Below are positions 1 to 44,291 of a stretch of DNA of 64,000 nucleotides, piece by piece. The stretch is from Squalus acanthias (lineage: Eukaryota), in NCBI GenBank assembly GCA_030390025.1, contig CM059432.1:66156001-66220000 (forward strand). The letters are read 5' to 3'. The notes under the pieces are model-generated. The model made no database searches. It was not told the DNA's origin and saw nothing but the letters and a program-made list of their open reading frames with translations. Positions within the stretch are counted from its first letter, which is position 1, and each line of letters starts with the position of its first letter. A program made the position numbers and the translations under genes.

Positions 1-3000
1 GAGTAATTCCTCCCTGTAGGCCTTATATCCCTTCTGTGCTCTGAGTCTAGAAGCACATGTATTTGACAGACCTAGATTAGACATTGAAAAGAAAAGTGCC
101 TAAAGATATTGCTGCAGAACTTGCACACACTACACCCTTGTGATATGGCATCAGGAATCCAACATGCTGTGTAAACATAAGCCCCCAGCCAAAAGTAAAT
201 AATGGCAGCACTCCACATACACGGGTCAATTAGAATGACAAAGCCTGCCACACTTCTGGGTGGAGCTGAAGCTTTTGAAGCACAAGGCTCTGAATGAGTG
301 GCACACTTAATGGCCTTTCTGGAGCAGCAAGTATTTCCATTACCAGCTGTCACTGTGGGACACCAGTACAAGCTTGTCTCCGGGTTACAAGCTTCCTCCC
401 TAGAGATTAATGTGTGCACCAAGTCCATGGCAAGTTTTTAACCTTTTCAGTGCTAAATATCTTTATTAAACATGTTCTGCAAAATGATTGAAATGAATAA
501 ACTTGGTGAAAGCAAACCTCCTGTTAGCCAATGTTGAGCAGTATTAATGGACAAGTCTATGCGCCAGCCTACCCTATTTTCTTGGCTGACGAACAGCCTG
601 GAGACAATAAGGCAGCAAAATGAAGGATACAGCAAACTGCAAAAACAACAAAAAAAGATCAGTAAGACAGAAAACTGTCTTTCCCCTTGTTCAAAATTTT
701 TGTCCCAACTTGGAAAAGAAAAGAGAAACAATGTTGGAAGATGGTCAGGAATTTTACTGGTTATTAAAACTGGATGCAATTTAGTCCATAAACTCCATGT
801 GGTGGAAAAAAGTCATTTTCTCAGCATGATTTTTACAACATGGAATCACGTCCAACACTGAACTCAGTAAACACTACTATCTCATTCCTGGCATGGTTCC
901 TTTTTATTCTTAGGAACAGGAATGCTGGGTGGGTAAAATAAAAAAAAGCTACACAGATTTTAACACTGGAGTCTGAGTGTGTGGGGATAATGGACAGCAG
1001 GGCAGCACATTAAAAGCCTCAAGAGTCATTTGCCTGAATAGTGGTCACCACAGGGACTCACTTGTGCCCACCTGCCTGATCCAGAAATGACTGCATATAA
1101 GTCTGGCTGAAAGATTTAAAAACTGACTGATCCATTTTTATTTAGTGGGCACTAGAAATGAACAACAAGCGGCTGAGGTACAGACCTTTCTAAATGCTGG
1201 TACGATTCATTATAATTGAGTAGTCTAAGCAGACGCAGAATACTAAGTAGAACTCTCCATTAGCCTCAGCGCAAAACCAGAAACCTTATTCATTTTTGAT
1301 TCAGGCAGCTGATATGATTTAGAGCTCAATTTTCGCCACATGGTGGCAAGCACTGAAACAAGAACAGAATGGGGTCCAATTTTCCTGATTTATATCTATG
1401 TGCAGTGTGACTATTTTCCTTCAGGAGTGCAGAGCAAAATAAGATTATTCAAATTTATCTGTAAATGTCCTACCCTTACTGACCATGACTGAGTGTGTAC
1501 AGGGCCCTTTATAAGTTCAAGTGGACAGTCCTCCCATGTGTTAAAACAAACTTGGTGGCCGAGATTTTCCGGGGGGTCAGCGGGCGCGATCGGTGGCGGG
1601 TCGGGGGAAAATTATTTTTTTCCCCAACGGGTTGGGACTCAGCTGTGAACCGACCACTGGCCTGCCCCAATGTCAGGTCTGTCAGCGCTGAGCAGACCCG
1701 ACACGCAGCGGCGGGGGACCCAATTCAAGTAATTTTGACCTTGTTTAGAGATCATTAAGAATGCATTTGAGCTCACCTTTTGATTTTACGTGCTCACCCG
1801 CGGACCACGTCTGTCAAGCTGAGGCGGGAGTTTAGTGGCCATTGAATCAGCTGTTGAGTTGACAACTTCAAATGTAAAGTAAAAGCTCCCACCTTACAGA
1901 GATATCTTCCCTCACTGCATTTCCACAACAGATTCACATGCTGCAAATCTTTACACAAGTCTCCATCCACTCCGACCTCATTACCTCTCTCACCATTGAC
2001 AGATCGCTTCTGTCATCTCTAATTCACCTGCCATCTAATCCATCAGCATGGGATTTTTTTTTTTATTCGTTTATGAGATGTGGGCGTTGCTGGCAAGGCC
2101 AGCATTTATTGCCCATCCCTAATTGCCCTTGAGAAGGTGGTGGTGAGCCGCCTTCTTGAACCGCTGCAGTCCGTGTGGTGAAGGTATTCCCACAGTGCTG
2201 TTAGGGAGGGAGTTCCAGGATTTTGATCCAGCGACGATGAAGGATCGGCGATAGACTTCTAAGTCAGGATGGTGTGTGACTTGGAGGGGAATTTGGAGGT
2301 GGTGGTGTTCCCATGCGCCTGCTGCCCTTGTCCTTCTAGGTGGAAGAGGTTGCAGGTTTGGGAGGTGCTGCCAAAGAAGCCTTGACGAGTTGCTGCAGTG
2401 CATCTTGTAGATGGTACACACTGCAGCCATGGTACGCTGGTGGTGGAGGGAGTGAATGTTTAAGGTGGTGGATGGGGTGCCAATCAAGCGGGCTGCTTTG
2501 TCCTGGATGGTGTCGAGCTTCTTGAGTGTTGTTGGAGCTGCACTCATCCAGGCAAGTGGAGAGTATTCCATCACACTCCTTACTTGTGAATTGTAGATGG
2601 TGGAAAGGCTTTGGGGAGTCAGGAGGTGAGACACTCACCACAGAATACCTAGCCTCTGACCTGCTCTTGTTGCCACAGTACTTATGTGGCTGGTCCAGTT
2701 AAGTTTCTGGTCAATGGTGACCCCCAGGATGTTGACGGTGGGAGAATCGGCAATGATAATGCCGTTGAATGTCAAGGGGTGGTAGTTAGACTCTCGCTTG
2801 TTGGCGATAGTCATTGCCTGGGACTTCTGTGGCGCAAATCTTACCTGCCACTTTTCAGCCCAAGCCTGAGTGTCGTCCAGGTCTTGTTGCATGCGGGCAT
2901 GGACTGCTTCATTATCTGAGGAGTTGTGAATGGCATTGAACGCTGTGCAGTCATCAGCGAACATCCCCATTTCTGACCTTATGTTGGAGGGAAGGTCATT

Positions 3001-3858
3001 GATGAAGCAGCTGAAGATGGTTGGGCCTAGGACACTGCCCTGAGAAACTCCTGTAGCGATGTCCTGGGGCTGTGATGAATGACATCCAACCACCACAACC
3101 ATCTTCCTTTGTGCTAGGTATGACTTCAGCCAGTGGAGAGTTTTCCCCGATTCCCATTGACTTCAGTTTTACTAGGGCTCCTTGATGCCACACTCGGTCA
3201 AATGCTGCCTTGATGTCAAGGGCAGTCACTCTCACCTCACCTCACTTCTGGAATTCAGCTCCTTTCTCCATGTTTGGACCAAGGCTGTAATGAGGTCGGG
3301 AGCCGAGTGGTCTTGGCGGAACCCAAACTGGGCATCAGTGTGCAGGTTACTAGTGAGTAAGTGTCGCTTGATAGCACTGTCGCTGACACCTTCCATCACT
3401 TTGCTGATGATTGAGAGTAGACTGATGGGGCGGTTATTGGCCGGATTGGATTTGTCCTGCTTTTTGTGGACAGGACATACCTGGGCAGTTTTCCACACTG
3501 TCGGATAGGTGCCAGTGTTGTAGCTGTACTGGAATAGCTTGGCTAGAGGCGCAGCTAGTTCTGGAGCACAAGTCTTCAGCACGACAGCCGGGATGTTGTC
3601 GGGGCCCATCGCCTTTGCTGTATCCAATGCACTCAGCCGTTTCTTAATTTCACATGGAGTGAATCGAATTGGCTGAAGACTTGCCTCTGTGATGGTGGAA
3701 ACCTCAGGAGGAGGCCGATCTGTATCATCCCCTCGGCACTTCTGGCTGAAGATGGTTGCAAATGGTAGAGTGAGGGATATGCCGAGCCATGAGGTTACAG
3801 ATTATGGTGGAATACAATTCTGCTGCTGCTGATGGCCCACAGTTGATTCATCTGCGAC

Positions 3859-5570
3859 CTCATGCCGGGCTGGGGTTGTGCTGAGGTAGTGGCGGGTAGC
3901 ATGCTGCGGGATGGAGTTGAGGACACTCACGTCGAAGACAGAGTCTCGGTTAAGGAGGTCTTCGAAGTGCTCCTTCCAGCGGGCACTGACTGCCTCTCTA
4001 TCCTTGATGAGTACCTCTCCATTCTTGGCCCGCAGTGGGGTAGGACCTTGGGTGCTTGGGCCGTAGGTGGTCTCGACTGCGCTAAAGAATCCACGCACGT
4101 CGTGGTTGTCGGCTAGCTGCTGGATCTCCTGCACTTTCTCCACCCACCATCTGTTCTTTAGGTCACGAGTTTTTTGTTGGACCTCGGCCTTCAGGCATCT
4201 GTAGAGCTGCTTTCTTGCTCTCGAGTTGTGTTGCTGTTTCCAGATCAGGGATGCCTTGTGCTTGCAGCTTATTAGATCCTGAATCTCCTGGTCATTCTCG
4301 TCGAACCAGTCTTGGTGTTTCCTGGTCAAGTGTCCGAGCGTCTCTTCACAGGTGCTGATCATGGAGGCCTTGAGTGCAGACCAGGCGCTGTGGACACTCT
4401 GTGTCTCTGAATCACTGGGAGTCATCAGGTTGGTTGTGAGGCGTAGGCTGAATAGGGCTTTCTTAGCAGGGTCTTTGAGTGCTCCAGCGTTGATTTTCCT
4501 GCGGCATTGTTTCTGTTGCCGCCGCTGTTTTGGGGCTACATTGATGGAGATGACAGAGCGGATTAGGCGGTGGTCTAGCCAGCAGTCATCAGCTCCTGTC
4601 ATGGCGCGGGTGATGTGGACGTCCTTGTGGTCCTTCGCTCGGACGATGACGTAGACCAGCAGATGCCAGTGCTTAGAGCGAGGGTGTTGCCATAAAGCCT
4701 TATATTTGTCTCTCTGACGGAACAAGGTGTTGGTTATGACAAGGCCATGTTCTAATGCACGACGAGGCCTTGGACAACGTGGACCACTTTCCATACCTCG
4801 GGAGCCTACTGTCAACAAGGGCAGACATCGATGATAAAGTCCAACACCGCCTTCAGTGCGCCAGTGCAGCCTTCGGTCGCCTGAAGAAGAGAGTGTTTGA
4901 AGACCAGGACCTCCAACCTGGCACCAAGCTCATGGTCTACAGAGCAGTAGTGATACCCGCCCTCCTGTATGCTTCAGAGACATGGACCATGTACAGCAGG
5001 CACCTCAAAGCACTGGAGAGGTACCACCAATGCTGCCTCCGCAAGATCCTTCAAATCCATTGGCAGGATAGGTGCACCAACATCTGTGTTCTTGCTCAGG
5101 CCAACACCCCCAGCATCGAAGCTTTGACCACGCTCGATCAGCTCCGATGGACGGGCCACATTGTCCACATGCCCGATACGAGACTCCCAAAACAAGCGCT
5201 CTACTCGGAGCTCCGACACGGCAGCAGAGCCCCAGGTGGGCAGAGGAAATGCTTCAAGGACACCCTCAAAGCCTCCTTGAAAAAGTGCAACATCCCCTCC
5301 GACACCTGGGAATCTCTGGCCCAAGACCGCTCGAAGTGGAGGAGAAGCATCCGGGAAGGCGCCGAACACCTCGAGTCTCTTCGCCGGGAGCAAGTGGAAG
5401 CCAAGCGCAAGTCAACCCAAGCACCCCACCCACCCATCCCTTCAACCACCGTCTGCCCCACCTGTGACAGAGACTGTAGGTCCCGCATTGGACTCATCAG
5501 TCACCTGAGAACTCATTTTTAGCGTGGAAGCAAGTCATCCTCGGTTCCGAGGGACTGCCTAAGAAGAAGA
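3859..5570. mobile_element. RTE-clade LINE, 5'-truncated and 5'-inverted (3859-4754 minus; 4755-5570 plus)
   Basis: The minus part encodes the APE C-terminus and linker (LVITNT, WQHPRSKHWH, DHRLI, RWKEHFEDLLN). The plus part encodes the RT C-terminus and a C2H2 finger (FPYLGS, LYASETW, QLRWTGH, CPTCDRDC..GLISHLRTH). It ends in an (AAG)n tail at 5561-5570. Confidence 0.93.
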
Positions 5571-6489
5571 GGACAGGTGCATCTGCAACAGGTAGATTGG
5601 TGAGGACGAGGTCAAGTAGGTTTTTCCCTCGAGTTGGTTCTCTCACCACATATCGCAGGCCCAGACTGGCAGGTATGTCCTTCAGGACTTGGCCAGCTCG
5701 GTCAGTAGTGGTGCTACCGAGCTACTCTTGTGGTTGGACATTGAAGTCCCCCACCCAGAGTACATTCTGTGTCCTTGCAACTCTCAGTGCTTCTTCCAAG
5801 TGGTGTTCAACATGGAGGAGTACTGATTCATCAGCTGAGGGAGGGCGGTAGGTTGTAATCAGCAGGAGGTTTCCTTGCCCATGCTTGACCTGAAGCCATG
5901 AGACTTCGTGGGGTCTGGAGTCAATGTTGAGGACTCCCAGGGCCACTCCTGTATACCACTGTGCCACCACCTCTGGTCTGTCTTGCCGGTGGGACAGGAC
6001 ATACCCAGGGATGGTGATGGAGGAGTTTGGGACATTGGCTGAAAGGTATGATTCTGTGAGTATAACTATGTCAGGCTGTTGCTTGACTAGTCTGTGGGAC
6101 AGCTCTCCCAATTTTGGCACAAATCCCCAGATGTTTATGAGGAGGACTTTGCAGGGTCGACTGGGCTGGGTGTGCCGTTTGCCATGTCCGTAGCTGGTGC
6201 CGAGGTCGATGCTGGGTGGTCCGTCCGGTTTTATTCTTCGTAACGGTTTGTTACAACTGAGTGACTTGCTGGGCCATTTCAGAGGGCAGTTAAGAGTCAA
6301 CCACATTGCTGTGGGTCTGGAGTCACATGTAGGTCAGACCAGGTAAGGATGGCAGATTTTCTTCCCTAAAGGACATTAGTGAACCAGATGAGTTTTTACG
6401 ACAATCCGATAGTTTCATGGTTACCATTACTGATACTAGCTTTTTATTCCAGATTTATTTAATAAACTGAATTTAAATTCCCCAGCTGC

Positions 6490-6572
6490 TGTGGTGGGAT
6501 TTGAATTCTGGATCATTAGTCCAGGCTTCTGCAGTACTAGCCCAGTAACATTACCGCTATGCTACCATGCCC
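6490..6572 (-). promoter_or_regulatory. tRNA-derived head with Pol III A-box and B-box-like motif at the LINE 5' end
   Basis: The minus strand reads GGGCATGG-TAGCATAGCGG-TAATG...GAATTCAAATCCCACCAC. TAGCATAGCGG (6554-6564) fits the A-box consensus TRGCNNARYGG. ATTCAAATCCC (6496-6506) is a degenerate B-box. Confidence 0.7.
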
Positions 6573-7282
6573 TTTATACTCTCTCACCTTGGTCCTCAGA
6601 ATCCCACCACGATCAGCCCCAATACCAGCACCAGGCACACCAGAAGCACCAACAACAACACCACTAACCTTCTCCGCAATCACCTGATGCTGCACAGGAC
6701 ACAGGGCATCAGCACCCGACCACATTGCTGCCCGGGAGGCCAGGGGTGGCCGCACCATGGCCAGATTTACTTCACTTGATGCTGTACACCCTGGCTGCCA
6801 CATGATGTGCCAGGTTGGCACCACCCCACACCAACACCATAAAGCTTCCCTACAATGCCCAAGCCATTCCTTTCACACTCATCACCATTGCGGGGGTGGT
6901 ACCGTTATGTCTCACCATTCACTGCAACTCACTAAGACACTTCCAAAGGTGCACACAAATCTGTCCAAGAATGCAAAGTGTTGAAAATAAAGGTTTCAAT
7001 GTTTGACACCACATGAACAGAAACTTTACATGAACATTGCATAAAACACCCAAGTGCCTACCCTTGTGTGTTGTTAGTTGGTATGATTGCATTAGGATGA
7101 GGGTGAGTGTGAGGGGTAGCTAGTGAGATGGGGATGTGATAATGTAGATAGAGAGGGATGGGCGGAGGTGCCAGGTAAGTTGATGTGAGTAAGGATGTGT
7201 AGGAGTAGGGTTGGGAAGGCAGAATGATGGGGATGTGATGAGTGGCACAGCAGGATGAGGTTGAGTGTGGCTTTGTACTAAC

Positions 7283-7510
7283 CTTTTGTGATCTACTGAG
7301 ATCATTGAAACGTTTGCGGCACTGCACCCAGGTCCTCCTGACCACATCCCTGCTTGTGCCCTCCTCTGCAATGTGCAACCAGGCTGTGTTGATCTCCTGT
7401 GGAGGTCTCTTCTGCCTATGGGAAGGGAAGAGGACGTCCCTGTGTGCTGTGACTCCCTCCATAAGTATATGGAGGGTGTCATGGGAGAGCCTGGGTGCAC
7501 CATTGTGCAA
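7283..7510 (-). pseudogene. Harbinger Myb/SANT-like DNA-binding protein, exon 1 remnant
   Basis: APRLSHDTLHILMEGV..W..IAEE..RTWVQCRKRFNDL followed by the donor AAG|GTTAGT. Homologous to 40325-40534 and 28843-29082. Confidence 0.85.
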
Positions 7511-8819
7511 TGATTGTCAGTGTTTGCAGCACCTCAATGCTGTGGAACACTGACAGCACAAATGCCAAAATAAATTTGGACATGGTCCAAATGACATCAC
7601 TAGACCCGCTTCCTCTAATTGGCCGGCAAACGCGCTGGGCGAGCTAAACAAGCCCAATCAACTGAAAGTAATTTCAGACAGTGGGATGGAGCCAACAGCA
7701 GGTTTGGGATGTCGCCCGCCATGGACCCACCGAGGTCAGCAAAATCGCGGCCATTGTCTGTGTTTGCAGCACTTCAATGTTGTAGAACACTGACAGCACA
7801 AATGTCAAATTAAAGTTGGCCATGGTCCCTTTAAGCAAACCGGCTGATGACCCGTCATCAAATGACACCACCAGACCCGCTTCCTCTAATTGGCCGGGAA
7901 ACGCGCTGGGCTTGCTTAACAAGCCCTATCAAGCGAAAATCATTTTACAGTGTGGGCTGGAGCCAGCAGCGGGGTCCGGACCCACCACTGACATCGTCCA
8001 CCACGGACCCACCGAGGTTAGTAAAATCCCAGCCACCGTTTCCTGGATTCCAACTCCAAATGGAGGCATAGTCAATTTATATTTTAAAGCAATAATTTAG
8101 ATGGTTAGTTTATACAAATAAGGCTCACTTCAGATGTGTATTCGCAGCAAAATGAATTCAGGAACCTGTTTCCAACCAGTGGGCAATAAAGACTGCCTGG
8201 CTAAGAGGTCCAATTGTCTCCGCACCCTGTTGGGAGAGTCATATTTCCAAAAGGCTTATGACTCTGTGAGGACATTTGATAACTGCATTGTTTGCTTCAC
8301 AAATAATCTGAAAAGATTTTCCTTTGAAGGTATTGTGAAGATTCAGGCCTTCCAGCAACCTGTGATGATTTTATAGCCTGAAAAGTTTATATCCAGCCTC
8401 CAGTGACAGTTTCATACTATCTTAAGGATTGCTTCATGCTCTGTAACTATTTTGGTTTCCAGAACTTGATTCTTTTCTTCCTTCTTACCCCAGAACTTCC
8501 CTTTGATCCAGTTGGCTGTGTATTTTTTTTCTAAGTTCTCCAATTGGCAAGTTGTGACTATCCAATCATTGAAATAAACAGCTTCAGAATGGACAAGAGC
8601 TGCGGTAGGCTGGTTTGCTATTACTGCAGTTATCCTGCAGGTACTGTCCGATAATGATGCCAGCTTCGAAAATGGTGTTAGCCAGCGGCACTGAATATTC
8701 CTCACTGTGGCCTAAGGAAAGGCAACCGCTGTGGCCACGTACTTAAATACATGCACAGAGCTCTGCTGACTGGCCACTGAATGCCAGTGGCAGTTTTATG
8801 TTCTCTTTTTCTTCTTTGT

Positions 8820-9125
8820 TAATTTTCTCCCTTTCTTCTGCCGACTGCATGCTGAGGAACAGTTCCAAAATTCCCTTCCATTACCTCACTCAAGTGTCCA
8901 TTGTTTGTGTGTACTGGCAGGTTATTTGACCACAGGGGACATCATAGCCGAGCATAATCCTGTCATCACCACACATATGCACTTCCGCCAGTGGTTGCTG
9001 AAAGCCTGGGTAATTTCCCACTCCACACTCAAGGGTACCAAGGCCACTGCAGACACGATCAGCTTCTTTAGCGCAGACTGGGAATCGAACCTGGGACCTT
9101 CCTTGTCTGTATGGCTGAGCTACTA
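8820..9125 (-). mobile_element. Old tRNA-derived SINE remnant
   Basis: B-box-like GGTTCGATTCCC on the minus strand near 9080-9092. The body resembles 60980-61350. Confidence 0.5.
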
Positions 9126-9639
9126 ATATCATGGTGGTCAGTGGGTGCATTGAACTGCATTCGCTGCCTGCTCCTTGAAAAATTTGGTGCAGAGGCCTGA
9201 GGCCTACAATGCACTCAAGGCATGAAGAGGACAGCAAATGCAAAAGAGACTAGGAGCCCATCCACAAGTTGTGCACTGGGCTCATTAGGCTCCCTATTTT
9301 CATTTTAGTTAGGCCTCTGTCCTATAATGTGGCTGGAGTACCTTAGCAGCCCTCCAGCTATATTGCGCCCATTTTGTATTGGTGCTGAAGGTCACCTTTA
9401 AGTTAATAAAATGTGTGCATCTTTGTCCTTTGCCCCCACTCCCCCTCCACCCCCCTTACCCCGGTGCCTGTGTCCCTCGTTCCCGGTACCCCTTACCCGT
9501 TTCTCCTTTCTGGTGCCCAATGCCCAACCCCCGACATGCAAGGAAATTACCCAGTACACAGCGGGCAGCCAGCGGTCCCTCACTGATTGCTGGCTTCAAT
9601 AATGTGGCAATATATTGTATAAATGAGCTGACCTCCTGT

Positions 9640-14455: not shown

Positions 14456-16808
14456 CAACAACAACAACTTGTATTTATATAGCATCTTTAACGTAGTAAA
14501 ACATCCCAAGGCACTTCACAGGAGTATTAAAAGACAAAAAACATTAGCACCGAGCCACATAAGGAAAAATTAGGGCAGGTGATCAAAAGCTTGGTCAAAG
14601 AGATAAGTTTAAAGGATTGTCTTAAAGGAGGAAAGAGAGGTAGCAAGGCGAAGAGGTTTAGGGAGGGAATTCCAGAGCTAAGGGCCTAGGCAACAGAAGG
14701 CACGGCCACCAATGGTGGAGCAATTAAAATCAGGGATGCTAAAGAGGGCAGAATTAGAGGAGCGCAGATATCTCGGGGGGTTGTGGGGCTGAAGGAGATA
14801 ACAGAGATAGGGAGGGGCGAGGCCATGGAGGGATTTGAAAACAAGGATGAGAATTTTGAAATCGAGGCATTGCTTAATGGGGAGCCAATGTAGGTCAGCG
14901 AGCAAAGGGGTGACGGGTGAATGGGACTTGGTGCGAGTTAGGACATGGGCAGCCGAGTTTTGGATGACCTCAAGTTTACATAGGGTAGAATGTGGGAGGC
15001 CAGCCAGGAGTGCGTTGGAATAGTCAAGTCTAGAGGTAACAAAGGCATGGATGAGGGTTTCAGCAGCAGATGAGCTGAGGCAAGGGCGGAGATGGGCGAT
15101 GTTACGGAGGTGGAAATAGGCGGTCTTAGTTATGCTGTGGATATGTGGTCGGAAGCTCATTTCAGGGTCAAATATGACACCAAGGTTGCGAACAGTGTGG
15201 TTCAGCCTCAGACAGATGTTAGGGAGAGGGATGGAGTCAGTGGCTAGGGAACGGAGTTTGTGGTGGGGACCGAAAACAATGGCTTCGGTCTTCCCAATAT
15301 TTAATTGGAGAAAATTTCTGCTCATTCAGAACTGGATGTCGGACAAGAAGTCTGACAATTTAAAGACTGTGGAGGGGTCGAGAGAAGTGGTAGTGAGGTA
15401 GAGCTGGGTGTCGTCAGCGTACATTTGGAAACTGGCACTGTGTTTTCGGATGATGTCGCCAAGGGGCAACATGTAGATGAGAAATAGGAGGGGGCCAAGG
15501 ATAGATCCTTGGGGGACATCAGAGGTAATGATGCGGGAGCGGGAAGAGAAGCCGTTGCTAGTAATTCTCTGGTTATGATTAGATAGATAAGAATGGAACC
15601 AGGCGAGTGCAGTCCCACCCAGCTAGACGACGGTGGAGAGGCATTGGAAAAGGATGGAGTGGTCAACCATGTCAAAGGCTGCAGACAAGTCAAGAAGGAT
15701 GAGGAGGGATAGTTTACCTTTGTCACAGTCACAAAGGATGTCATTTGTGACTTTGATGAGAGCCGTTTTGGTACTGTGGTAAGGGCAGAAACCTGATTGG
15801 AGGGATTCAAACTCAATCTTAGAGACAAAGGAGTCAATGAGCTCCTCACACTTGTTGTCGGAGGTGAGGGTGGAGGAGACAGGGGAGAGCGGTTTAAGAA
15901 GACGGTTACAGTAGAGAATAGGAGCCGGGGCTTATCTTTGCATTCCAGAATGATTCTGGAATAGTGAGCAATTTTGGCAGGCGAGAGTAGGACCCGATAA
16001 TGCTTTATGTGGTGCAGCCAGGTCTGGCAGTGAATGGCTAAACCAGTTGTCTGCCATATCCGTTCAAGTCTGCGGCCCTGCGTCAAGGGAGCGAAGATGA
16101 GGGCCATGCCAGGGTGAGAGAGAGTAATTGTTTTAATAGGGACTAGGGCATCAAAGGTGGTGGTGAGGGTGTGGTTGAGCAGATCGGTAGCTGCAGAAAT
16201 GTCATGGTGAATGGAGGGCCAAAGGCTGGACAGTTGGGATTTCATAAGTGCAGTTGTAAGAGAGTTGGGAGAGAGTTTTATCCAGGGGCGGACACGGAAG
16301 GAAGTAGGGTTGAGGGGGGTGGAAGGGGGATGTGTGTGGAGAGCAATACATGGAAGTGGTCAGAGATGGCCTTATCTGCAATTGACACGATGGGAGTAGC
16401 GAGGCCACGAGAGATGGCAAGGTCAAGGGGGTGGGCGTGAATATGGGTCGGGGAGTTTACATGGAGGGAGAGATTAAGGGAGGATAGGAGGCTAGTGAAC
16501 TCCGAGGAGAGAGAGCATGGTGAATTGAGATGGAGGTTGAAATCACCGAGGATGTGAAGTCGTTCGGTGCAGAGGCTGAGGAAGGAGAGCAGTGAAGATA
16601 TCTCGGTAATAACATTTTTATGGTACTTGGGTGGGCGGTAGAGAACAAGAATTTTAAATGAGAGGTGAGAGGGGTGGAATAAGGTGAGATGCTCAAAGGA
16701 GGAGAAAGTGCCGGAGGTGTAGGGGGACAGACGAGAGCAGTGAAGATATCTCAGTAATAACATTTTTATGGTACTTGGGTGGGCGGTAAAGAACAAGAAT
16801 TTTAAATA
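14456..16808 (-). mobile_element. L2 LINE, 5'-truncated within the endonuclease
   Basis: ORF 14678-15325 (LQLNIGKTE, RNLGVIFD, SRLDYSN, LHWLPI) and APE motifs (YRPPK, LGDFNLH, SDH) in 16278-16730. (CAA)n tail at 14456. Confidence 0.93.
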
Positions 16809-17612
16809 GAAAAGAGAACTAGAAATCAAAATGAGAGGGGAACAAACACTTAAACCAGAAACCAGAATGAGAGAACTCGAAACAAGAACAGAAGGAAAGA
16901 GAACCAGGAAATAGAAAGAGAGGAGAAATAGAAGCAGAAATTGGAACAAGAGGGGGAAGAAAAACAGATTTGAGAATGAGAGGAGAAAATGAACTAAAAA
17001 ACAACAAGGTGAGGAGGAAGAGAAACAGAATACAGAATGATAAGGAAAAGCGAAAACAAACCAGAACACAAGGGGGAAAAAAACAGAAATGAGAAGAAGA
17101 AGGGTACAAGAACGGGAAATCAGAAAAAGGGGGTAAAGAGGAAGAGAATTCGAAGTGAGAGGGGTAAGAAAATGAGAGGGAAAAGAGAAACAGAAATCAA
17201 AATAAGAGGGAAATGAGAACTGGAAATCAGAATAAGAAGTGAAAGAAAACCAAAAACCAGAACAAGAGGGGAAAGAGAGTTAAAATTCAAAATGAAGTGG
17301 AAAATGAACCTAGATCAGAACAAGGGAGAAATGAGAACTAGAAACTAAAATAAAAGAGAAAAGGGAACCAGAAATTAGAACTATGTATTGGAATGAGGAA
17401 GAAAGGGACCAGAATCAGAACAAAAGGAAAACAAACCATTAATCAGACTAGAAATCAGAATAAGTGTGGAAGCTAATCAGAAATCACAATGCAAGGGAAA
17501 AGAGAAATAGAAATTAGAAGAAGATTGGAAAATGAACCAGAAATCAGACCGAGAAATGTAAAGGATTAGAAATGAGAATGAAATGAAAAAGTGAAACAGA
17601 AGCCAGAACATA
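16808..17612 (+). repeat. Degenerate purine-rich minisatellite, unit about 30 bp
   Basis: Consecutive units such as GGGAAAAGAGAAACAGAAATCAAAATAAGA and GGGAAATGAGAACTGGAAATCAGAATAAGA. It continues at about 17775-17810, with an inverted piece at about 17875-17925. Confidence 0.8.
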
Positions 17613-19091: not shown

Positions 19092-22000
19092 TCATAGAAT
19101 CATAGAACTTTACGGCACAGAAGGAGGCCATTTGACTCACAGGCCCAGAAATTCCGTTCCCTACAGGTGTGTACGCGCTGTGTACTCACCCGTAGGGCCA
19201 ACGGAAGTGCCGGTTTTAGGCATGCACTGCGCATGCGCTGGAAACTGGAACTTCTGTTCTGTGAAGAAAGGGCTTGACTGGTCAAACGCCTGCGCCGGAT
19301 AGGCAGCGCGTACGGCTGAAACTTCCATTTTTTTCACAGTTGCTTCAGTCCACGTAAGTCGGAAACAGCTGCGCCTAGAAAAGCAGGCGCAAGGCCTGCT
19401 TTTACCAGGCTAATAGTTGAAGAAAGTTAAAAAAAAAAATTTTTCCACTGATTTATCATTTTAAAATACTTTAAAGAAAGGTAAGTTTATTTTTAGCCCC
19501 GTTAAAAACTTTAATTATTTTTTTCAAAAATTAAAATTTTTGTTTAAAATAGTTAATTTATGTAATTTATATTCATTTTAAAAATGTGATGTTTTCTTTA
19601 AAATTTATTTGAAGTTTTACTTAGGTTTTGGGGCTGATCTCTATTCATAGATTTGACAGGTCTTCCTGTCAAATCTATGAATGGAGATTCCCTGCTCTGA
19701 TTGGCTCCCCATGGCCCACGTGATCCCAGGGACGCTGCGAACTACCTGCACCCCTGGGATACACGTGCCCTACACACCGGCAGTTTGAAGAGGCACAGCA
19801 ACGGAATTCTGCGCCTCCCGGGAGCCCTCCGGTCCAGGCGGAGATTTTTCCAAATCGCAGCCCTCCGCCCGCGGGAGGGCTGCGAACGGAATTTCTGGGC
19901 CAATGTCTGTGCCGGCTGAAAAAGAGCTATCCAGCCTAATCTCACTTTCCAGCTCTTGGTTCATAGCCTTGTAGGTTATGGCACTTCAAGTGCATATCCA
20001 GTACTTTTTAAATGTGATGAGCGTTTCTGCCTCTATCACCCTTTCAGGCAGTGAGTTCCAGACCCCACAACCCTCTGGGTGAAAAAAGTTCTCCCCAACT
20101 CTCCTCTAATCCTTCTACCAATTACTTTAAATCTATGCCCCTGGTTATTGACCTCTCTGCTAGGGGAAATAGGTCCTTCCTATCCACTCTATCAAGGCCC
20201 CTCATAATTTTATATGCCTCAATCAAGCCTCCCCTCAGTCTCCTCTTTTCCAAAGAAAACAACCCCAGCCTATCCAATCTTTACTCATAGCTAAAATCCT
20301 CCAGTCCTGGCAAAATCCTTGTAAATCTCCTCTGTACCCTTTCCAGTGCAATCACATCTTTCCTGTAATGTGGTGACCAGAACTGTACACAGTACTCTAG
20401 CTGTAGCCTAACTAGTGTTTTATACAGTTCAAGCATAACCTCCCTGCTCTTATATTCTATGCCTCAGCTAACAAAGGAAAGTATCCCGTATGCCTTCTTA
20501 ACCACCTTATCTACCTGTCCTGTTACCTTCAGCGATCTGTGGACATGCACTCCAAGGTCCCTCTGTTCCTCAACACTTCTCAGTATCCTACCATTTATTG
20601 TGTATTCCCTTGCCTTGTTTAGCCCTCCCCAAATGCATTACCTCACACTTCTCTGGATTGAATTCCATTTGACACTTTTCTGCTCAACTGCTCAGTCCAT
20701 TGATATCTTCCTGCAGTCTACAACTTTCTTCCTCACTATCAACCACACAGCCAATTTTTGTATCATCTGCCAGCTTCTTAATCATGCCCCCTACATTGAA
20801 GTCTAAATCATTGATATATAGCACAAAAAGCAAGGGACCTAGTACTGAGCCCTGTGGAACTCCACTGGAAACAGCTTTCCAGTCACAATAACATCTGTCG
20901 ACCATTACCCTTTGCTTCTTGCCACTGAGCCAAAGTTGGATCCAACTTGCCACTTTCCCTGGATCCCCTGGGCTTTTATTTTTCTGACCAGTCTGTCATG
21001 TGGAACCTTTTCAAAAGCCTTGTTAAAGTCCATGTAGACTACCTAAAATGTTCTACCCTCATCAACCCTCCTTGTTACCTCCTCAAAAAATTAAATCAAG
21101 TTAGTCAGACATGACTTTCCCTTAATAAATCCATGCTGACTGTCCTTGATTAATCCGTGCCTTTCTAAGTGGCAATTAATATTGTCCCTCAGAATTTTTT
21201 CCAACAATTTGCCCACCACCGAGGTCAGGCTGACTGGCCTGTAATTACTCGGTCTATCCCTTTCTCCCTTTTTAAACAATGGTACAACGTTCGCAGTCCT
21301 CCAGTCCTCCGGCACCACACCTGTAGCCAGAGAGGATTAGAAAATGGTCAGAGGATGGTCAGAGCCACCGCTATTTCCTCGCTTGCTTCTCTTAACAGCC
21401 TGGGATACATTTCGTCCGGGCCTGGCGATTTATATACTTTCAAAGATGCTAAATCCCTCACTACTTCCTCTCTCACTAATATTTTACACTCCTCCTCAAC
21501 TTCAACGTCTGCATCGTCCCTCTTTTTTGTAAAGACAGACGCAAAGTATTCATTAAGAACCATACCCACGTATTCCACCTCCACACACAAGCTTCCTTTT
21601 TGGTCTCTAATAGGCCCTATTCTTTCTTTAGTTATCCTCTTGCTCTTTATGTATTTATAAAACATCTTTGTGTTTTCCTTGATTTTACTTGCCATTATTT
21701 TTACATGCTTTCTCTTTGCTTTCCTAATTTCCTTTTTAATTTCACCCCTGCACTTTCTATACTCCTCTAGGCTTTCTGCAGTATTTAGCTCTCGGTATCT
21801 GACATAAGCTTCCCTTTTTTTCCTTATCCTACCCTGTATGCACCTTGACATTCAAGTAGCTGTTTCCAGTCCACTTTTGCTAAATCACATCTCAGATGAG
21901 TAAAATTGGCCTTTCCTCAATCGAGAACTTTTACTCCTGGTCTATCTTTGTCCTTTTTCATAACTACACTAAATCTAACTGAATTATGATCACTACCACC

Positions 22001-24436: not shown

Positions 24437-27400
24437 CTAATCACCCTTGTGAATTCCCTTAGTGCCTGTGTTCCTTGTACCATTGCCACTCCTACTGCTC
24501 CTACGAGGTGCTTGCCCAGTGGCTACAACAAGGGTGGTGGAAGGCTGCTGACCTTCTGTTGAGAAGACTGCAGATGGCCTTGGAAGGCGACCTTGAGCAG
24601 CTCTGGGACTAGAGGGCCTGGCTTCAGACTGCATCTGCTTGGATCGGGCTGCAGCAGTCCGTGCTGGCTGGCTGACAGGCAACAGCAAGGGCACTAGTGG
24701 AGTGGCAAGAGTGGGAGCAGGAATGCTGTCATCCTGAGAGAGGACAGCAGGTTCATGTTACATGGAGCCACTGCCACTCCCCCGGGCCAGTGCATCAGCA
24801 ATCCTAGTAATCAGTTGGACGCCCTGGAACCCCTTTGAACAGTTGTATCCAGAGCCATGATGGCAGGAGTCTGAGCTTCCACAACAGCACTGAGAATTTT
24901 GGTGGAAGCTGTTTGTGCTGCAGTGCAAGCTGTGACATCGGCCAGCAGATGCTTCATCATGGTGGATTCCACAGGCGTACTGTTGGAGGTGACCACGCGT
25001 TCCATGTTGGGAAGGATGGGCTCCAAGCTCTGCGCAAAGCCCTGTGCCAAGTTGGTGCTGGAGTCCTCCATGCTCCTTGACATTGTGCGCAGGCTTTATG
25101 GCAGGCCTTCCAGTGAACCAAGCATTCGGTTATGTGGCCCCATCTGCCATCTTCTGTAGACTGGTCCATCGAAGTTATCATCTGACCTTGCCCTCCGGCG
25201 AGCTGGCACCCGCAATAACCTTTCCCCTCGCCCTGGCTCCTGCGCACTTGTGCCCGGTATCTCACCACGTGCAGATCCCTCATCTATCATAGCCTCTAAA
25301 ATATGCACAGTGTCAGTATCTGAGCTGGTGTCTGCGAATGTAAGATCAAGTGGCTGTGTCTCTTCATAACCACTATCTTTTTCCTATTTCTCCTCTGACT
25401 GGGCAGTTTCCAGTTCTTGGATATCTGAAATGACAAAGGAGCAAGAGATGGGTTGTGATGAGGGGAGAGAGAAAGTAAGAAGAACAAAGAAGACAAAGAA
25501 TAAAACTGGATGGACCACCCAGCATCGACCTTGGCACCAGACACGACAAAGGCGCACCCAGCCCAGTCGACCCTGCAAAGTCCTCCTCACCAACATCTGG
25601 GGACTTGTGCCAAAGTTGGGAGAGCTGTCCCACATACTAGTCAAGCAACAGCCTGACATAGTCATACTCACAAAATCATAACTTTCAGCCAATGTCCCAG
25701 GCTCCTCCATCACCATCCCTGGGTATGTTCTGTCCCACTGGCAAGACAGACCCACCAGAGGTGGTGGCACAGTGGTATACAGTTGGGAGGAAGTGGCCCT
25801 GGTAGTCCTCAACATTGACTCTGGACCCCATGAAATCTCACGGCATCAGGTCAAACAAGGGCAAGGAAAATTCTTGCTGATTACCACCTACCGCCTTCCC
25901 TCAGCTGATGAATCAGTATTTCTTAGTGTTGAACACCATTTGGAAGAAACACTGAGGGTGGCACAGAATTTCCTCTGGGTGGCTCAGCAGCACCACTACT
26001 GACCAAGTTGGCCGAGTCCTGAAGGATATAGCTGCCAGACTGGGCCTGCGGCAGGTGGTGAGAGAACCAACTCGAGGGAAAAACCTACTTGACCTCGTTC
26101 TCACCAATCTGCCTGTCGCAGATGCACCTGCCCATGACAGTATTGGTAGCAGTGACCACCGCACAGCCCTTGTGGAGACTAAAACCCGACTACCACCGTG
26201 CTAAATGGGATAGATTCAGAACAGATCTAGCAGCTCAAAACTGGACATCCCTGAGGTGCTGTGGGCCATCAGCAGCAGCAGAATTGTATTCCACCACAAT
26301 CTGTAACCTCATGGCCTGGCATATCCCTCACTCTACCATTACCATCAAGCCAGGGGACCAATCCTGGTTCAATGAGGAGTGTAGAAGAGCATGCCAGGAG
26401 CAGCATCTGGCGTACCTAAAAATGAAGAGCCAACCTGGGGAAGCTGCAACACAGGACTACATGCATGGTAAACAGCAGAAGCAGCATGCTATTGACAGAG
26501 CTAAGGGATCCCACAACCAATAAATCAGATCAAAGCTCTGCAGTCCTGCCACATCCAGTCGTGAATGGTGGTGGACAATTAAACAACTAACGGGAGGAGG
26601 AGGCTCCAATGACATCTCCATCCTTAATGATGGCGGAACCCAACATGTGAGTTCAAAGGATAAGGCTGAAGCTCTTGCAACCATATTCAGCCAGAAGCAC
26701 TGAGTGGATGATCCATCTTGGCCTCCTCCTAAGGTCCCCACCATCACAGAAGCCAGTCTCCAGCCAATTCAATTCACTCCACGTGATATCAAGAAACGGC
26801 TGAGTGCACTTGGATATAGCAAAGGCTATGGGCCCCGACAACATCCTGGCTATTGTGCTGAAGACTTGTGCTCCAGAACTAGCCGTGTTTCTAGCCAAGC
26901 TGTTCCAGTACACTAGCATCTACCTGACAATGTGGAAAATTGCCCAGGTATGTCCTGGCCACAAAAAGCTGGACAAATCCAACTGGCCAATTACTGCTCC
27001 ATCAGTCTACTCTCAATCATCAGCTTAGTGATGGATGGTGTCACCGACAGTGCTGTCAAGTGTTGCCCAGTTTGGGTTCCGCAAGGACTACTCAGCTCTA
27101 GACCTCATTACAGCCTTGGTCCAAACATGGACAACAGGGTTGAATTTTAGAGGTGAGGTGAGAGTGACTGCCCTTGACATCAAGGCAGCATTTGACCGAG
27201 TCTGGCATCAAGGAGCTCTAGTATAATTGAAGTCAATGGGAATCAAGGGGAAAACTCTCCACTTGCTGGAGTCATACCTAGCACAAAGAAAGATGGTTGT
27301 GGTTGTTGGAGGCCAATCATCTGAGCCCCAGGACATCGCTGCAGGAGATCCTCAGGGCAGTGTCTTAGGCCCAACCATCTTCAGCTGCTTCATCAATGAC

Positions 27401-29082
27401 CTTCCTTCCATCATATGGTCAGAAATGGGGATGTTCACCGATAATTAGACATTGTTCAGTTCCATTCACAACTCCTCAGATAATGAAGCAGTCCATGCCC
27501 GCATGCAACAAGACCTGGACGACATTCAGGCTTGGGCTGAAAAGTGGCAAGTAACATTTGTGCCACACAAGTGGCAACAAGAGAGAGTCTAACCACCACC
27601 CATTACCATCACCGAATCCCCCACCATCAACATCCCGGGGGGTCACCATTGACCAGAAACTTAACTGGACCAGCCACATAAATACTGTGGCAACAAGAGC
27701 AGGTCAGAGGCTGGGTATTCTGCAGTGAGTGTCTCACCTCCTGACTCCACAAAGCCTTTCCACCATCTACAAGGCACAAGTCAGGAGTGTGATGGAATAC
27801 TCTCCATTTGCCTGGATGAGTGCAGCTCCAACAATACTCAAGAACCTCAACACCATCCAAGACAAAGCAGCCCACTTGATTGGCTTCCCATCCACCACCT
27901 TAAATATTCACTCCCTCCACCACCGGCGAACCGTGTCTGCAGTGTGTACCATCTACAAGATGCACTTCGGCAACTCGCCAAGGCTTCTTCAACAGCTCCT
28001 CCCAAACCCACGACCTCTACCTCCTAGAAGATCAAGGGCAGTAAGCTCGATGGAACACCATTACCGCCAGGTTCCCCTCCAAGTCACACACCATCCTAAC
28101 TTGGAAATAGATTGTCGTTCCTTCATCGTCGCTGGGTCAAAATCCTGGAGCTCCCTCCCTAACAGCACTATGGGAGTACCTTCACCACATGGACTGCAGT
28201 GGTTCAAGAAGGCAGCTCACCACCACCTTCTCAAGGGCAATTAGGAATGGGCAATAAATGCTGGCCTTGCCAGCGACACCCACATCCCATGAATGAATCA
28301 AACAAATGTGTGTGCTTATACCATCTGCAGCTTGTGAGTCAGAAGAGGTTGTGGGATGAGGGAGTAGTGGGAAGAGAGAAGGAGGATTAGTTATGCAGAT
28401 ACCCTGATCATCGATCTCTGCAGCCCCACCAGTGGTCACAGCCTCAGCGATGCCCCTTCCAATTATGGCCAGCATTGTCTCCTCCATGTGAGTTAAAACA
28501 TGCGCTTGTCCTCCTCCAGTTCTTTCCTGCTGCCTGCTGTTATGCACCACCTTCTTCTGCAAGAAAGAGTGAAGTGTGTCATTGAGTGCCCTGCAATATT
28601 ATTGGGTGACGTGGATGTCGTGGTTGAATAGCTGCCGGCGTGTGCGAGCTGTGAGTTGTGGGTGTGAGGCTTGCAACTGTGCTAAGTGTGTGAGGGTGAG
28701 GTAAAGCATATGAATTGAAGGGTTGAGTACTGATTAATAGATATTGTTGGTAGGTGGGTGATGGGGTTGTAGAGAATTGAGCAGTGGTTGAGGCTAGTGG
28801 TGCAGATGGTAGGATATGCCATTTGAAGATGAACTCACTCACCTTGGCAACTCATGTCAGATCTTTAAGCTTCTTCCTGCACTGCATTCTTGTTCTTGGA
28901 GCAGCAGTACTGGCATTGACCTCTACCGCCACTTCTTCCCACTGCCTCCTGGGCATATGTCTGGAGGGCCTCTTGCCCCCCTGCGAATACAGGATGTCTC
29001 TCCTTCTCTCCACTTCTTGCACCAAGAGCTCCAGTGCATTGTCAGAAAACCTTGGTGCTCGCTCTTTCGCATGTTCAGCCAT
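24437..29082 (-). pseudogene. Three-exon Harbinger Myb/SANT gene (exons 29082-28843, 28556-28403, 25424-~24437)
   Basis: MAEHAKERAPRFSDNALELLVQEV..QWEEVA..QCRKK. Splice sites AAG|GTGAGT, TTCTTGCAG|, CAGG|GTAT and CATTTCAG| have consistent phases. There is an in-frame stop at the end of exon 1 and frameshifts in exon 3. Confidence 0.85.
25497..28297 (+). mobile_element. Second copy of the 2053-6572 LINE family, 5'-truncated just upstream of the endonuclease
   Basis: Near-identical peptides to the first copy (CKVLLTNIWGLVPKLGEL, LDIKAAFDRVWH, SHLLTPQSLSTIY...HHHLLKGN). The 3' end is CATCCCATGAATGAAT. Confidence 0.93.
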
Positions 29083-39718: not shown

Positions 39719-41832
39719 AGAGTCTTTGCATCAACTACTCTATCTGGAAAGTCTATTCCACATGTTGATCACTTTTTGGAGGTAAATTTACCTGTTATTG
39801 TTGGGTGAAATAGGAAAACAATGGCGAATTGACTAACCGTTTTATACCCTGCCCGATTTTCTCTTCTATTACCTTCGTGTGAAACAAAATTTCCCTGATA
39901 TCAGTTCTAAAATTGCCTTTTCATAGTCTGAACCTGTGTCAACTTGTTCTACTTCCACACTTAAATTTAAAGTAATACTCAAGGTCAACATTTGGTACAC
40001 TCTTAATGCATACCTCTATAAGACCATCTCTCAGACACCTCGGCTGCGATTTTCCCAACCTGGGCAGGTCCGATGGCATCGGGATCCATGGTGGGCCACG
40101 AGGCCGCTGCTGCCTTCATCCCGCTGCAAAAGAAGACTTTCCCCTAATGGGCCTTGTTAAGCCCGCCCAGTGCGTGACCCGGCCCCAATTAGAAGGGGCA
40201 GGTCTGGTGACATCATCGCTGACGTGTTTGGTGCTTGTGTATTTAAAGGGACCATGGCCACATTGCATTTGAAGCTACATCTAGAATCCTATTCAGGACA
40301 GTTGAGATTTGTAAGGCTACCGTGATGGCTGGAACAAGGCAGAGGGCTGCACCTAGGTTCTCCGATGACTCCCTCCATGTGCTTGTGGAGGGAGTCCAGG
40401 TATGCAGGGAGGTCTTCTTCCAGGACACCAAGAAGGACTGGTTAGAGATTGCCGAGGAAGTTAACAGCAGGGCAGTTGTAAGGAAGACCTGGGTGCAGTG
40501 CCGAAAACGTTTTAATGATCTGAGATCAGGAAAGGTGAGTACAAAGCCACACTCACCTTCAGCCTGCTGTGCCTCTCGTCACATCCCCATCACTCTGCCT
40601 TCCCAGCCTGACTCCTGCACATCCTTCCTCAAATCAACATACCTTGCACCTCCACCCATCCCTCTCTCTCTATGTACATTATCACATCCCCATCTCACTA
40701 GCCACCCCTCACACTCACCCTTATCCTAGTGCAATCATGCCAACTAATAACACGCAAGGAGGCCACTTGGTATTGCCACCCCACTCCCTCATAGTCACAC
40801 TCTACACATGTAACCCTTCCAGTTCTTGCACTCATTCCATCACTCTCACTCAACCTTTTCTTCTTTCCCTCCTTGCAGGAGAAGAGAGCCCGTAATAACA
40901 GAGAGACACAAAGAACGGGAGGAGGCCCTTCACAATTGGACACATTAACAAGTGCAGAGGAGAATGCCCTGGAGGTCTCAGGAGCGGGGGGAACAGATGG
41001 ACGTGGGGGATGGAGAGAGGGGCTCAACACAACAACCTGGTGACAGAATCAGTTTCCATTCAGCTACATGGCATTCATCACTCACTCATATGGGGGTTGA
41101 TATCAGGAGACATTGCATGCTCATGATGTGCATAATGGTATCTGTATGCAATGTACATAGATATATCTAACTGGTCTCTTTACTCTCCCACAGGTCCATC
41201 AAGAGCCCCTCCCCACTTTCGAGACCCAAGAAGAGGATGACTCATCAAAGGAGCCTCCAGCCTCTCAGGGCGCAGCGGCACCAGAAACAAGTGCACCCCA
41301 GCACCAGCACAGATATGCACACCTCGGTGGGTCCATCGCGAGATAGAGTAATGTCATCTGGTGTCTCACACAGCACAAGTGAGTAACAACAGATGGTGGA
41401 GACAGCGAGAGCAGTGTAAACTCCTCATCGGAGGGTGCAGGACTCTCCCAGCTCTGCTCAGCTGCATGCATACGCTGAGCCTCGGAGGCCATCCACAAAG
41501 AGGGTGATCCTGGAGCTCCAGGAACAAGTGCAGGAGGCTCTGATAGGTTTGCAACCATGGTGACTGCGAGTGTTCAGAGAATGGAGGAGTCCATCTCCAA
41601 CATGACCACCACCGTGGCGCACGCACTCGCGACTGTAGGTTGGATAGGATGGCCACCTTCATGGAGGACCTAATGCACCAGTCGCAGGAGCACATGGTGC
41701 CAATGCAAAATAGATTGTCATCTATGGAGGATAGATGGCTATCTATGGAACATAGATGGGCATCTATGGAGGAGAACAGAAAATGCTGGAAGCACTCAAC
41801 AGGCCAGGCAGCATCTGTGGAGAGAGAAACAG

Positions 41833-41869
41833 AGTTAACGTTTCAGGTCTGGGACCCTTCATCAGAACT
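41833..41869 (-). ncRNA. Minimal type-I hammerhead ribozyme motif (Penelope left arm)
   Basis: The reverse complement is AGTT-CTGATGA-A-GGGTC-CCA-GACCT-GAAA-CGTT-AACT. Confidence 0.7.
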
Positions 41870-42043
41870 GGAAAAGGCTAGAGATGTAACAGATTTTAAG
41901 CAGGTGTAGAGGCAGGGAAAGGGGGAGGAGAGGGGAGGAAGGAACTGAAGGAATATTCTGTGCTAGTGTAGGAGGCAGGAGAGATTAAATGTTGCAAATG
42001 AGGATGGCAGAATCATAAACAGCCTGAAAAATGGGGGCAGGGG

Positions 42044-43126
42044 TTATAGCCTGAAATTGTTGAACTCAATGTTGAGTCCAGAAGGCTGTAAAGTGCCTAA
42101 TCGAAAGATGAGGTGCTGTTCCTCGAGCTTACGTTGAGCTTCATTGGAACAGTGTAAGAGGCCGAGGACAGAGAGATCAGAGTGGGAGTGGAGCGGAGAA
42201 TTAAAGTGACAGGCGACCGGAAGCTCGGGGTCACCCTTACGGACTGAATGGAGGTGTTCCGCAAAGCAGTCGCCCAATCTGCGTTTGGTCTCCCCAATGT
42301 AAAGGAGACCGCATCGTGAGCAGCGAATACAGTATACTAAGTTGCAAGAAGTACAAGTAAATCGCTGTTTCACCTGGAAGGGGTGTTTGGGGCCCTGGAC
42401 AATGGGAAGGGAGGAGGTAAAAGGGCAGATGTTGCATCTCCTGTGCTTGCACGGGAAGGTGCCGGGCGAAGGGGGAGGGTTGTTGGTGGTGATTGAGGAG
42501 TGGACCAGGGTGTCGCGGAGGGAGCGGTCACTTCGGAATGCTGAAAGGGGACGTGAGGGGAAGATGCGTTTGGTGGTGGGATCACGTTGGAGGTGGCGGA
42601 AATGGAGGAGGATGATCCGTTGAATATGGAGGCTGGTGGGGTGAAAGGTGAGGACAAGGGGAACCCTATCATGGTTCTGGGAGGGAGAGGAAGGGGTGAG
42701 AGCAGAAGTGCGGGAAATGGAATGGACATGATCAAGGGCCATGTCAACCACAGTAGAGGGGAATCCTCGGTTGAGGAAAAAGGAAGACATGTCGGAAGCA
42801 CTGGTATGGAAGGTGGCATCGTCAGAGCAGATGCGGTGGAGATGGAGAAACTGGGTGAATGGAATAGAGTCCTTACAGGAAGTGGGGTGGGAGGAAGTGT
42901 AATCCAGGTAGCTGTGGGAGTCAGTGGGCTTGTAGTGGATGTTTGTCGATAGCCTATCACCAGAAATGGAAACAGAGAAGTCAAGGAAGGGAAGAGAAGA
43001 GTCGGAGATGGACCATGTGAAGGTGAGGGAAGGGTGGAAATTGGAAGTAAAGTGAATGAAATTATCTAATTCAGGGCGAGAGCAGGAAACGGCACCGATA
43101 CAGTCATCGATGTACCGGAGAAAGAG
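42044..43126 (-). pseudogene. 5'-truncated Penelope RT/GIY-YIG ORF, about 360 uninterrupted codons
   Basis: RYIDD, LPFLD, KPTDSHSYL, CKHRRCNIC, LVYCIRC..LYIGETKRRL..EH and PSGLNIEF. Confidence 0.92.
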
Positions 43127-44254: not shown

Positions 44255-44291
44255 AGTTCTGATGAAGGGTCCCAGACCTGAAACGTTAACT
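44255..44291 (+). ncRNA. Minimal type-I hammerhead ribozyme motif (Penelope right arm)
   Basis: AGTT-CTGATGA-A-GGGTC-CCA-GACCT-GAAA-CGTT-AACT has core boxes CUGAUGA and GAAA, stem I AGTT/AACT, stem II, and a palindromic AACGTT in place of stem III. Confidence 0.7.

Follow-up and report, generated by a model that had tools for sequence, protein, structure and literature searches.

A decayed LINE in the stretch of dogfish DNA analysed here (64,000 nt, hereafter the window) is a copy of CR1-Zenon, a known elasmobranch family of about 3.3 kb with one APE-RT ORF and a poly(A) tail, and it begins with a tRNA-like head. Judged from published consensus sequences, this head is a family trait of Zenon in sharks and a ray. 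Head ends were also found joined to Zenon tails, and the short forms to which such joints belong may be SINE-like internal-deletion derivatives of the LINE.

Anatomy of the element

The two copies of the element and the repeat around copy 1 consist of the following parts (positions in the window):

~6572 to 2054, minus strand: decayed CR1-Zenon LINE, copy 1, in two parts split by a later RTE-type insertion
6490 to 6572, minus strand: tRNA-like head, the 5' end of the element; 5' edge 6568-6573, 3' limit approximate, from empty-site joints and a by-eye match to SquAca_Zenon-1
6554 to 6564, minus strand: A-box, exact to TRGCNNARYGG, element position +9
6498 to 6506, minus strand: B-box, one mismatch in copy 1
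6245 to 6489, minus strand: conserved SINE-like stretch within the 5' UTR (the body); head-to-tail joints exit at ~6245-6256
6136 to 6244, minus strand: A-rich linker and basic open extension before APE, partly by eye
5569 to 6135, minus strand: APE endonuclease region, decayed, with a frameshift and a stop at 5722
3843 to 5568, plus strand at 4741-5568 and minus strand at 4740-3843: RTE-type LINE, a later insertion, 5'-inverted at ~4740
2119 to 3842, minus strand: remaining part of the one ORF, with the RT; decayed, lacking 335 nt at ~3761 and closed by the stop codon 2121-2119
2054 to 2118, minus strand: 3' UTR with a hairpin, AATAAA and then an 11-nt poly(A) at 2064-2054
6573 to 7588, minus strand: host repeat 5' of copy 1, with a Myb/SANT frame at 7516-7058; it resumes at 2052 and below
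25493 to 28306, plus strand: second copy of the Zenon LINE, 5'-truncated, 83-85% identical to copy 1 over long matches; headless, with no clear poly(A)

The head of copy 1 passes into the APE leader without an intervening A-tail, and the leader measures 438 nt from the element start to the APE motif at ~6135. A first-pass annotation of this DNA had described a tRNA-like 5' head with a perfect A-box and a degenerate B-box, running without poly(A) or TSD through about 0.4 kb of leader into APE and leaving no space for ORF1. This description stands: the A-box (6564-6554) is exact, the B-box (6506-6498) has one mismatch, and no ORF1-sized frame fits in the 438-nt leader of copy 1. The RT of copy 1 (P0002) matches RVT_1 with an E-value of 4e-16, and its APE matches Pfam Exo_endo_phos with an E-value of 6e-5, narrowly below the cut-off. 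The fold of the 3' end (2060-2200) gave a z of -2.77 against shuffles. Position 5722, considered as a boundary of the element, was rejected; it is a stop codon within decayed copy 1. The insertion at 3843-5568, which we take to be of RTE type from its protein and GAA tail, ends in a GAA-repeat tail, and a C2H2-like motif lies at the C-terminus of its protein. A 10-nt motif lies at both of its junctions and may be a TSD remnant, and ~125 nt of Zenon are absent beside it.

The sequence runs X1, X15, X21 and X22 were placed on window positions 1900-6900 at 80% likeness. Empty-site joints, which connect 2052 to 6568, 6572 or 6573, were seen in 18 contigs of X1 and in 7 of X15 (the two are not necessarily from the same animal); run X22 yielded 2 reads only. 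Because these contigs join the host repeat directly across the element, we conclude that the head and the A-tail bound a single insertion. No TSD flanking copy 1 was seen in the empty-site contigs. The 5' edge is uncertain by ~5 nt, and the outermost 5 nt may stem from the target.

Copy 2 starts at 25493, which corresponds to position 6241 of copy 1, ~105 nt before APE. Since it is truncated just past the head and body, it is uninformative on both the head and ORF1, and the earlier observation that this copy (given as 25497) also shows no ORF1 does not count as evidence. The window thus holds one head only, copy 2 being without one. Copy 2 fills two gaps of copy 1, and the two combined account for ~3.25 kb plus small deletions.

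Other repeats in the window

Myb/SANT frames, which we presume to be typical of PIF/Harbinger transposons, occur at 7058-7516 (minus), 40247-40729 (plus) and 28690-29058 (minus). Copy 1 lies within a Myb/SANT-bearing repeat, and the end of copy 2 is ~400 nt from a related Myb/SANT frame. A separate tRNA-type SINE fragment at ~8900-9130 (minus) has an exact B-box at 9091-9081 and no match to the Zenon head. Other decayed LINEs lie at 14678-17279 (minus) and 20609-21345 (minus); they comprise an APE-RT element rich in T, in which 19 T4+ runs were counted, and an RT that shares 32-40% identity with that of Zenon. Finally, an inverted repeat of 1.2 kb (41775-42999 and 43136-44348) has arms of 94% identity placed ~135 nt apart.

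The head is shared by Zenon elements of sharks and a ray

The A-box consensus is TRGCNNARYGG. Exact matches to it are not rare in the window (5 found, 3.39 expected), so only the position of the box, at +9, is informative. A 7-nt deletion precedes the B-box of copy 1 (by eye, against SquAca_Zenon-1), neither ARAGORN nor Rfam called a tRNA in the decayed copy 1 head (the window copy was scanned, not the consensuses), and the folding energy of the head is average (z of 0.03 against shuffles). With an A-box sequence this common, a mismatched B-box, silent tRNA searches and an average fold, the window by itself is merely suggestive of a tRNA origin.

Stuart et al. (2026, PMC13343379) report Zenon from elasmobranchs, coelacanth and hagfish and describe it as universally lacking ORF1 and ending in poly(A). 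Their Supplementary Table 2 has 10 Zenon rows, two from hagfish, one from coelacanth and seven from elasmobranchs: SquAca_Zenon-1/2/3 (dogfish), CarCar (white shark), RhiTyp (whale shark), ScyCan (catshark) and HypSab Zenon-1 (stingray). We compared the first 400 characters of each. By eye, the head stands at the start of 7/7 elasmobranch consensuses (5 species) and of 0/3 from hagfish and coelacanth, which begin differently. All seven fit the A-box, at +6 to +11, and six have an intact B-box 10-mer, the stingray row being one base short. When five exact B-box 10-mers were searched in the whole supplement (consensus table of 1,004 rows, 400 characters each), six rows matched, all of them elasmobranch Zenon. 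After the A-box comes, judged by eye, a stem of 5 bp closed by a 7-nt loop and resembling an anticodon arm. The spacer between the boxes varies by species yet retains a hairpin, a second one, in which two compensatory pairs distinguish white shark from dogfish (by eye).

In the seven elasmobranch rows, the head and the conserved body of ~250 nt run collinearly into the leader, and in HypSab-1, SquAca-2 and SquAca-3 the APE start is visible within the first 400 nt. Copy 1 shows no structural difference from these consensuses; by eye, it is nearest to SquAca_Zenon-1 (3,314 characters), with which it is collinear and near-identical over the first 400 nt. A 17-nt motif from the window marks all 7 elasmobranch Zenon rows of the supplement and no other row. 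The element shares with Zenon a single APE-RT ORF without ORF1, an A-tail (A11 in copy 1) and, by eye over the first 400 nt, its sequence. The fusion of head and APE, first seen at this locus, is common to 7/7 elasmobranch consensuses; it is no one-off, and full-length copies with an ORF1 and another 5' UTR, the other outcome that would have spoken against it, did not appear. The absence of ORF1, earlier taken as unusual, turns out to be ordinary, since Zenon is described as universally lacking it (PMC13343379).

In protein searches, the RT gave 89 matches with 27-42% identity over most of the query, mostly unnamed, and the Atlas label for the element protein is RT only. No longer relatives of P0001 were present among 647 candidates. 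A search for relatives of near length returned 14 fragments, among which P0010 links the body frame to APE and P0008 seemingly starts in the body; both are mis-predicted genes and lend weak support. A 22-nt body motif matched no contig of metagenomes, viruses or prokaryotes, and protein-seeded locus scans found no relative. A basking shark NCBI protein named '3'-5' exoribonuclease 1 isoform X3' (P0058) matches the Zenon RT piece over one third of its length at 79% identity, and is either exonised Zenon or a mis-annotation.

Head-to-tail joints and probable short derivatives

The first-pass annotation had proposed that the LINE might be the parent of an internally deleted SINE made of head and tail. 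Head-to-tail joints with several breakpoints were indeed found: 8 of the 15 joints listed (of 2,945) connect 6245-6295 with 2117-2200. In seven joints whose in-between letters were read, the leader is left at ~6245-6256 and the tail is entered at ~2130, 2146, 2156-2161, 2168 or 2200, that is, at no fewer than five points, the deepest lying 79 nt into the ORF. Raw reads of X21, from another organism, gave two classes of loose ends, at 2129 (4 reads) and 2181 (3 reads). These joints rest on a short side of 21-54 nt at 80% likeness and cover the 3' end of the head only, not whole short elements. What they contain is head ends joined to tails, in keeping with SINE-like derivatives of Zenon formed by internal deletion. 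The LINE shows a single junction and the short forms many, which speaks for deletions that arose repeatedly from the LINE.

Summed contig depth in X1 was 1.59M and 0.86M for the head bins and 0.61-1.14M for APE, a depth that equals neither copy number nor expression. In X15, which we guess to be RNA, the head bins reached 69,652 and 17,945 against 4,542-6,030 for APE, again a measure of neither copy number nor expression.

SINE2 elements are short and non-coding, and their 5' end bears an A-box and a B-box. The boxes are in place here (A-box exact at +9, B-box damaged in copy 1); the full element, of ~3.3 kb with APE-RT, is neither short nor non-coding, and only the head-plus-tail derivatives could qualify. 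As in SIDEs, the joints of the short forms link the 5' and 3' ends of the partner LINE. A headed LINE that undergoes internal deletion would at once give rise to SINE-like elements, which would retain its promoter and tail and rely on the parent's enzyme.

T-runs on the sense strand

T4+ runs are absent from 2,780 nt of copy 1, where 4.2 are expected by base shuffle (P 0.013) and 2.2 by dinucleotide shuffle (P 0.089). Over 653 codons, 2.1 are expected from the element's own codon usage (P 0.084) and 4.2 under uniform synonymous usage (P 0.007), and in 3,239 non-redundant nt there are 0 against 4.5 by base shuffle (P 0.008). The deficit thus has a P of 0.007-0.09 depending on the null, and it is not significant under the stricter ones (dinucleotide and own-codon). 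Since C4 runs are likewise under-represented (P 0.013), the deficit is not specific to T. Copy 2 has one T4, at 27145, which is specific to that copy. By eye, T4 occurs within the first 400 nt of 0/7 headed consensuses and of 3/3 unheaded ones. The earlier remark that TTTT runs are scarce in the leader holds as an observation, there being no T4 in 6572-5571, and carries little weight, as merely 0.57 are expected there. On these counts the Zenon RNA is compatible with read-through by Pol III.

Translation start

No AUG in frame with APE and common to the consensuses was seen by eye, and the first 330 nt contain nine AUGs, one of them possibly target DNA. The A-rich linker, with lengths of 34, 34, 34, 33 and 30 nt, shifts the frame between species; copy 2 has an open frame of basic character before APE. 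Three candidate starts were rejected. The AUG-to-APE frame of copy 1 (6306-5722) does not serve as a family start, since the consensuses stop or leave the frame there (by eye) and the linker varies in length; it looks peculiar to this copy. Read-through of AUG-GCC-UAG would be in frame in merely 3/5 species. The AUG at the end of the linker is out of frame in the sole consensus that shows APE with this AUG intact, and it is ATA in both window copies and in SquAca-3. The N-termini of 17 of the 89 RT relatives settled no start codon, and a by-eye synonymous count favoured neither of two extension frames. We infer non-AUG initiation or recoding for APE-RT.

How Zenon might be transcribed

We propose that an ancestral Zenon gained its head from a tRNA or a SINE by template switching, in the stem lineage of sharks and rays or before its spread among them. 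TFIIIC would bind the A and B boxes, and Pol III would start at the first bases of the element and read through 3.3 kb free of T-runs. The full-length transcript would regenerate the template for target-primed reverse transcription, and APE-RT would be translated at a low level from this uncapped RNA, by a route that does without a conserved in-frame AUG. That Pol III transcribes the full 3.3-kb Zenon RNA from the internal boxes, as part of this best explanation, seems to us somewhat better than an even bet; the complete proposition, an autonomous vertebrate LINE read end to end by Pol III, with APE-RT translated from uncapped RNA that has no conserved AUG in frame, and with SINE families arising from the LINE by simple internal deletion, we would put slightly below even.

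The Pol III reading is favoured by the conserved A and B boxes and the absence of T4 runs. A Pol III mRNA is also feasible: type 2 Pol III promoters drove luciferase once TTTT had been removed, in a manner sensitive to a Pol III inhibitor, as reported in PMC8223928. Several observations weigh against this reading, namely the non-significance of the T4 deficit under stricter nulls, the depletion of C4, the T4 of copy 2 at 27145, the damaged B-box of copy 1 and the silence of Rfam and ARAGORN on the head. Pol III processivity is furthermore said by Kojima (2024, PMC10886601) to restrict length, and Pol III RNAs, having neither cap nor poly(A), are doubted as templates in PMC6023835.

The strongest competitor, which we regard as unlikely while giving it real weight, is that Pol II makes the coding RNA. 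Head and body would then be an internal promoter for Pol II or for both polymerases, or TFIIIC-bound open chromatin, and Pol III would serve the short derivatives only. LINEs are described as transcribed by Pol II (PMC10886601; PMC5786205), and type 3 Pol III promoters show Pol II activity, 7SK and U6 being made from the same start (PMC6023835). The element also has AATAAA and poly(A), and strict nulls leave the lack of T4 weakly supported. The AATAAA before the A-tail fits Pol II equally. Yet full-length consensuses of five species retain the boxes, at tRNA-like positions, despite the changes in the spacer, and the 5' end of the element is located where the start of a type 2 promoter is expected. 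A capped RNA, moreover, would meet the nine AUGs of the first 330 nt and no conserved in-frame one.

We consider it distinctly improbable that the SINE came first, as an independent, abundant, Zenon-dependent family whose head was repeatedly captured by LINEs through template switching, with selection on the boxes acting in the SINE. The 5' breakpoints do cluster at ~6245-6256 as at a module boundary, head depth exceeds APE depth in X1 and far more so in X15 (depth being no copy number), and chimeras of small RNAs with L1 are known (PMC13174262). Against this, the head-to-ORF junction is collinear in 7/7 consensuses while the short forms vary in tail entry, as expected if one parent was deleted many times over, and the consensus table offers no alternative 5' end for elasmobranch Zenon. 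The L1 chimeras with tRNA are few as reported (21 loci), mostly halves and antisense (PMC13174262). That a SINE merely lies beside a truncated LINE at this locus, as the single head in the window and the headless copy 2 might suggest, is refuted by the same fusion in the published consensuses of five species and by empty sites that show one insertion.

Comparison with known systems

In the usual division, LINEs are coding and transcribed by Pol II, and SINEs are non-coding and transcribed by Pol III (as stated in PMC10886601). With a type 2 promoter layout conserved in five elasmobranch species, headed Zenon opens two questions to direct test: can a transcript that Pol III makes in nature serve as mRNA, and can SINEs arise head-first from their own LINE? 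If the Pol III reading is true, Zenon would be a natural protein-coding gene of Pol III and an 'autonomous SINE'. Shark repeat libraries may list headed Zenon as two entries, one SINE and one LINE, and its short forms may represent SINE-like families missing from the catalogues.

A SINE-type 5' end and SINE-like offspring of this known LINE family have apparently gone unremarked. The main text of PMC13343379 contains 'tRNA' 0 times and its preprint contains none of 'tRNA', 'promoter' and 'polymerase', so head, promoter and short derivatives are not discussed there in such terms; a whale shark preprint names CR1-Zenon once in the text available. No description of a shark Zenon with a tRNA head turned up in the literature searched, although repeat databases may list the short forms and other papers may mention the head. 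Four motifs of the window had no match in bivalve SINE supplements, a weak test.

A parallel is Persaeus, a SIDE of lepidopteran Zenon (Wang et al. 2019, PMC6740152), in which a Zenon LINE likewise yields short, internally deleted elements of 5' and 3' ends. Persaeus is stated to be without tRNA, 5S or 7S homology or a Pol III promoter (PMC6740152), whereas the 5' end of the shark Zenon parent is itself tRNA-like, and the shark derivative would for this reason be SINE-like from birth. RTE-1_DAn and related elements are LINEs with a tRNA-like sequence that matches many SINE2 elements, and unlike Zenon they belong to the RTE clade (Kojima 2018, PMC5786205). They are a precedent, mentioned in passing, for a tRNA-like part in a LINE; the name RTE-1_DAn was found in that paper only, within the literature searched.

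TRNA-derived heads are also known from SINEs of cartilaginous fishes, SacSINE1 (Deu) and CmiSINE (CORE), both in PMC5499810, and HE1 (V-SINE, PMC4824008). Compared by description, the tail of SacSINE1 and CmiSINE is that of L2-2_CM (PMC5499810), whereas the Zenon short forms end in the Zenon tail. Bipartite SINEs (Bov-tA with Bov-B, SINE2-1_ACar with Vingi-2_ACar), as described in PMC5786205, also combine a tRNA head with 5' and 3' parts of a LINE. In the model given there, the LINE is headless and the head is added after the deletion; in shark Zenon, the LINE carries the head first.
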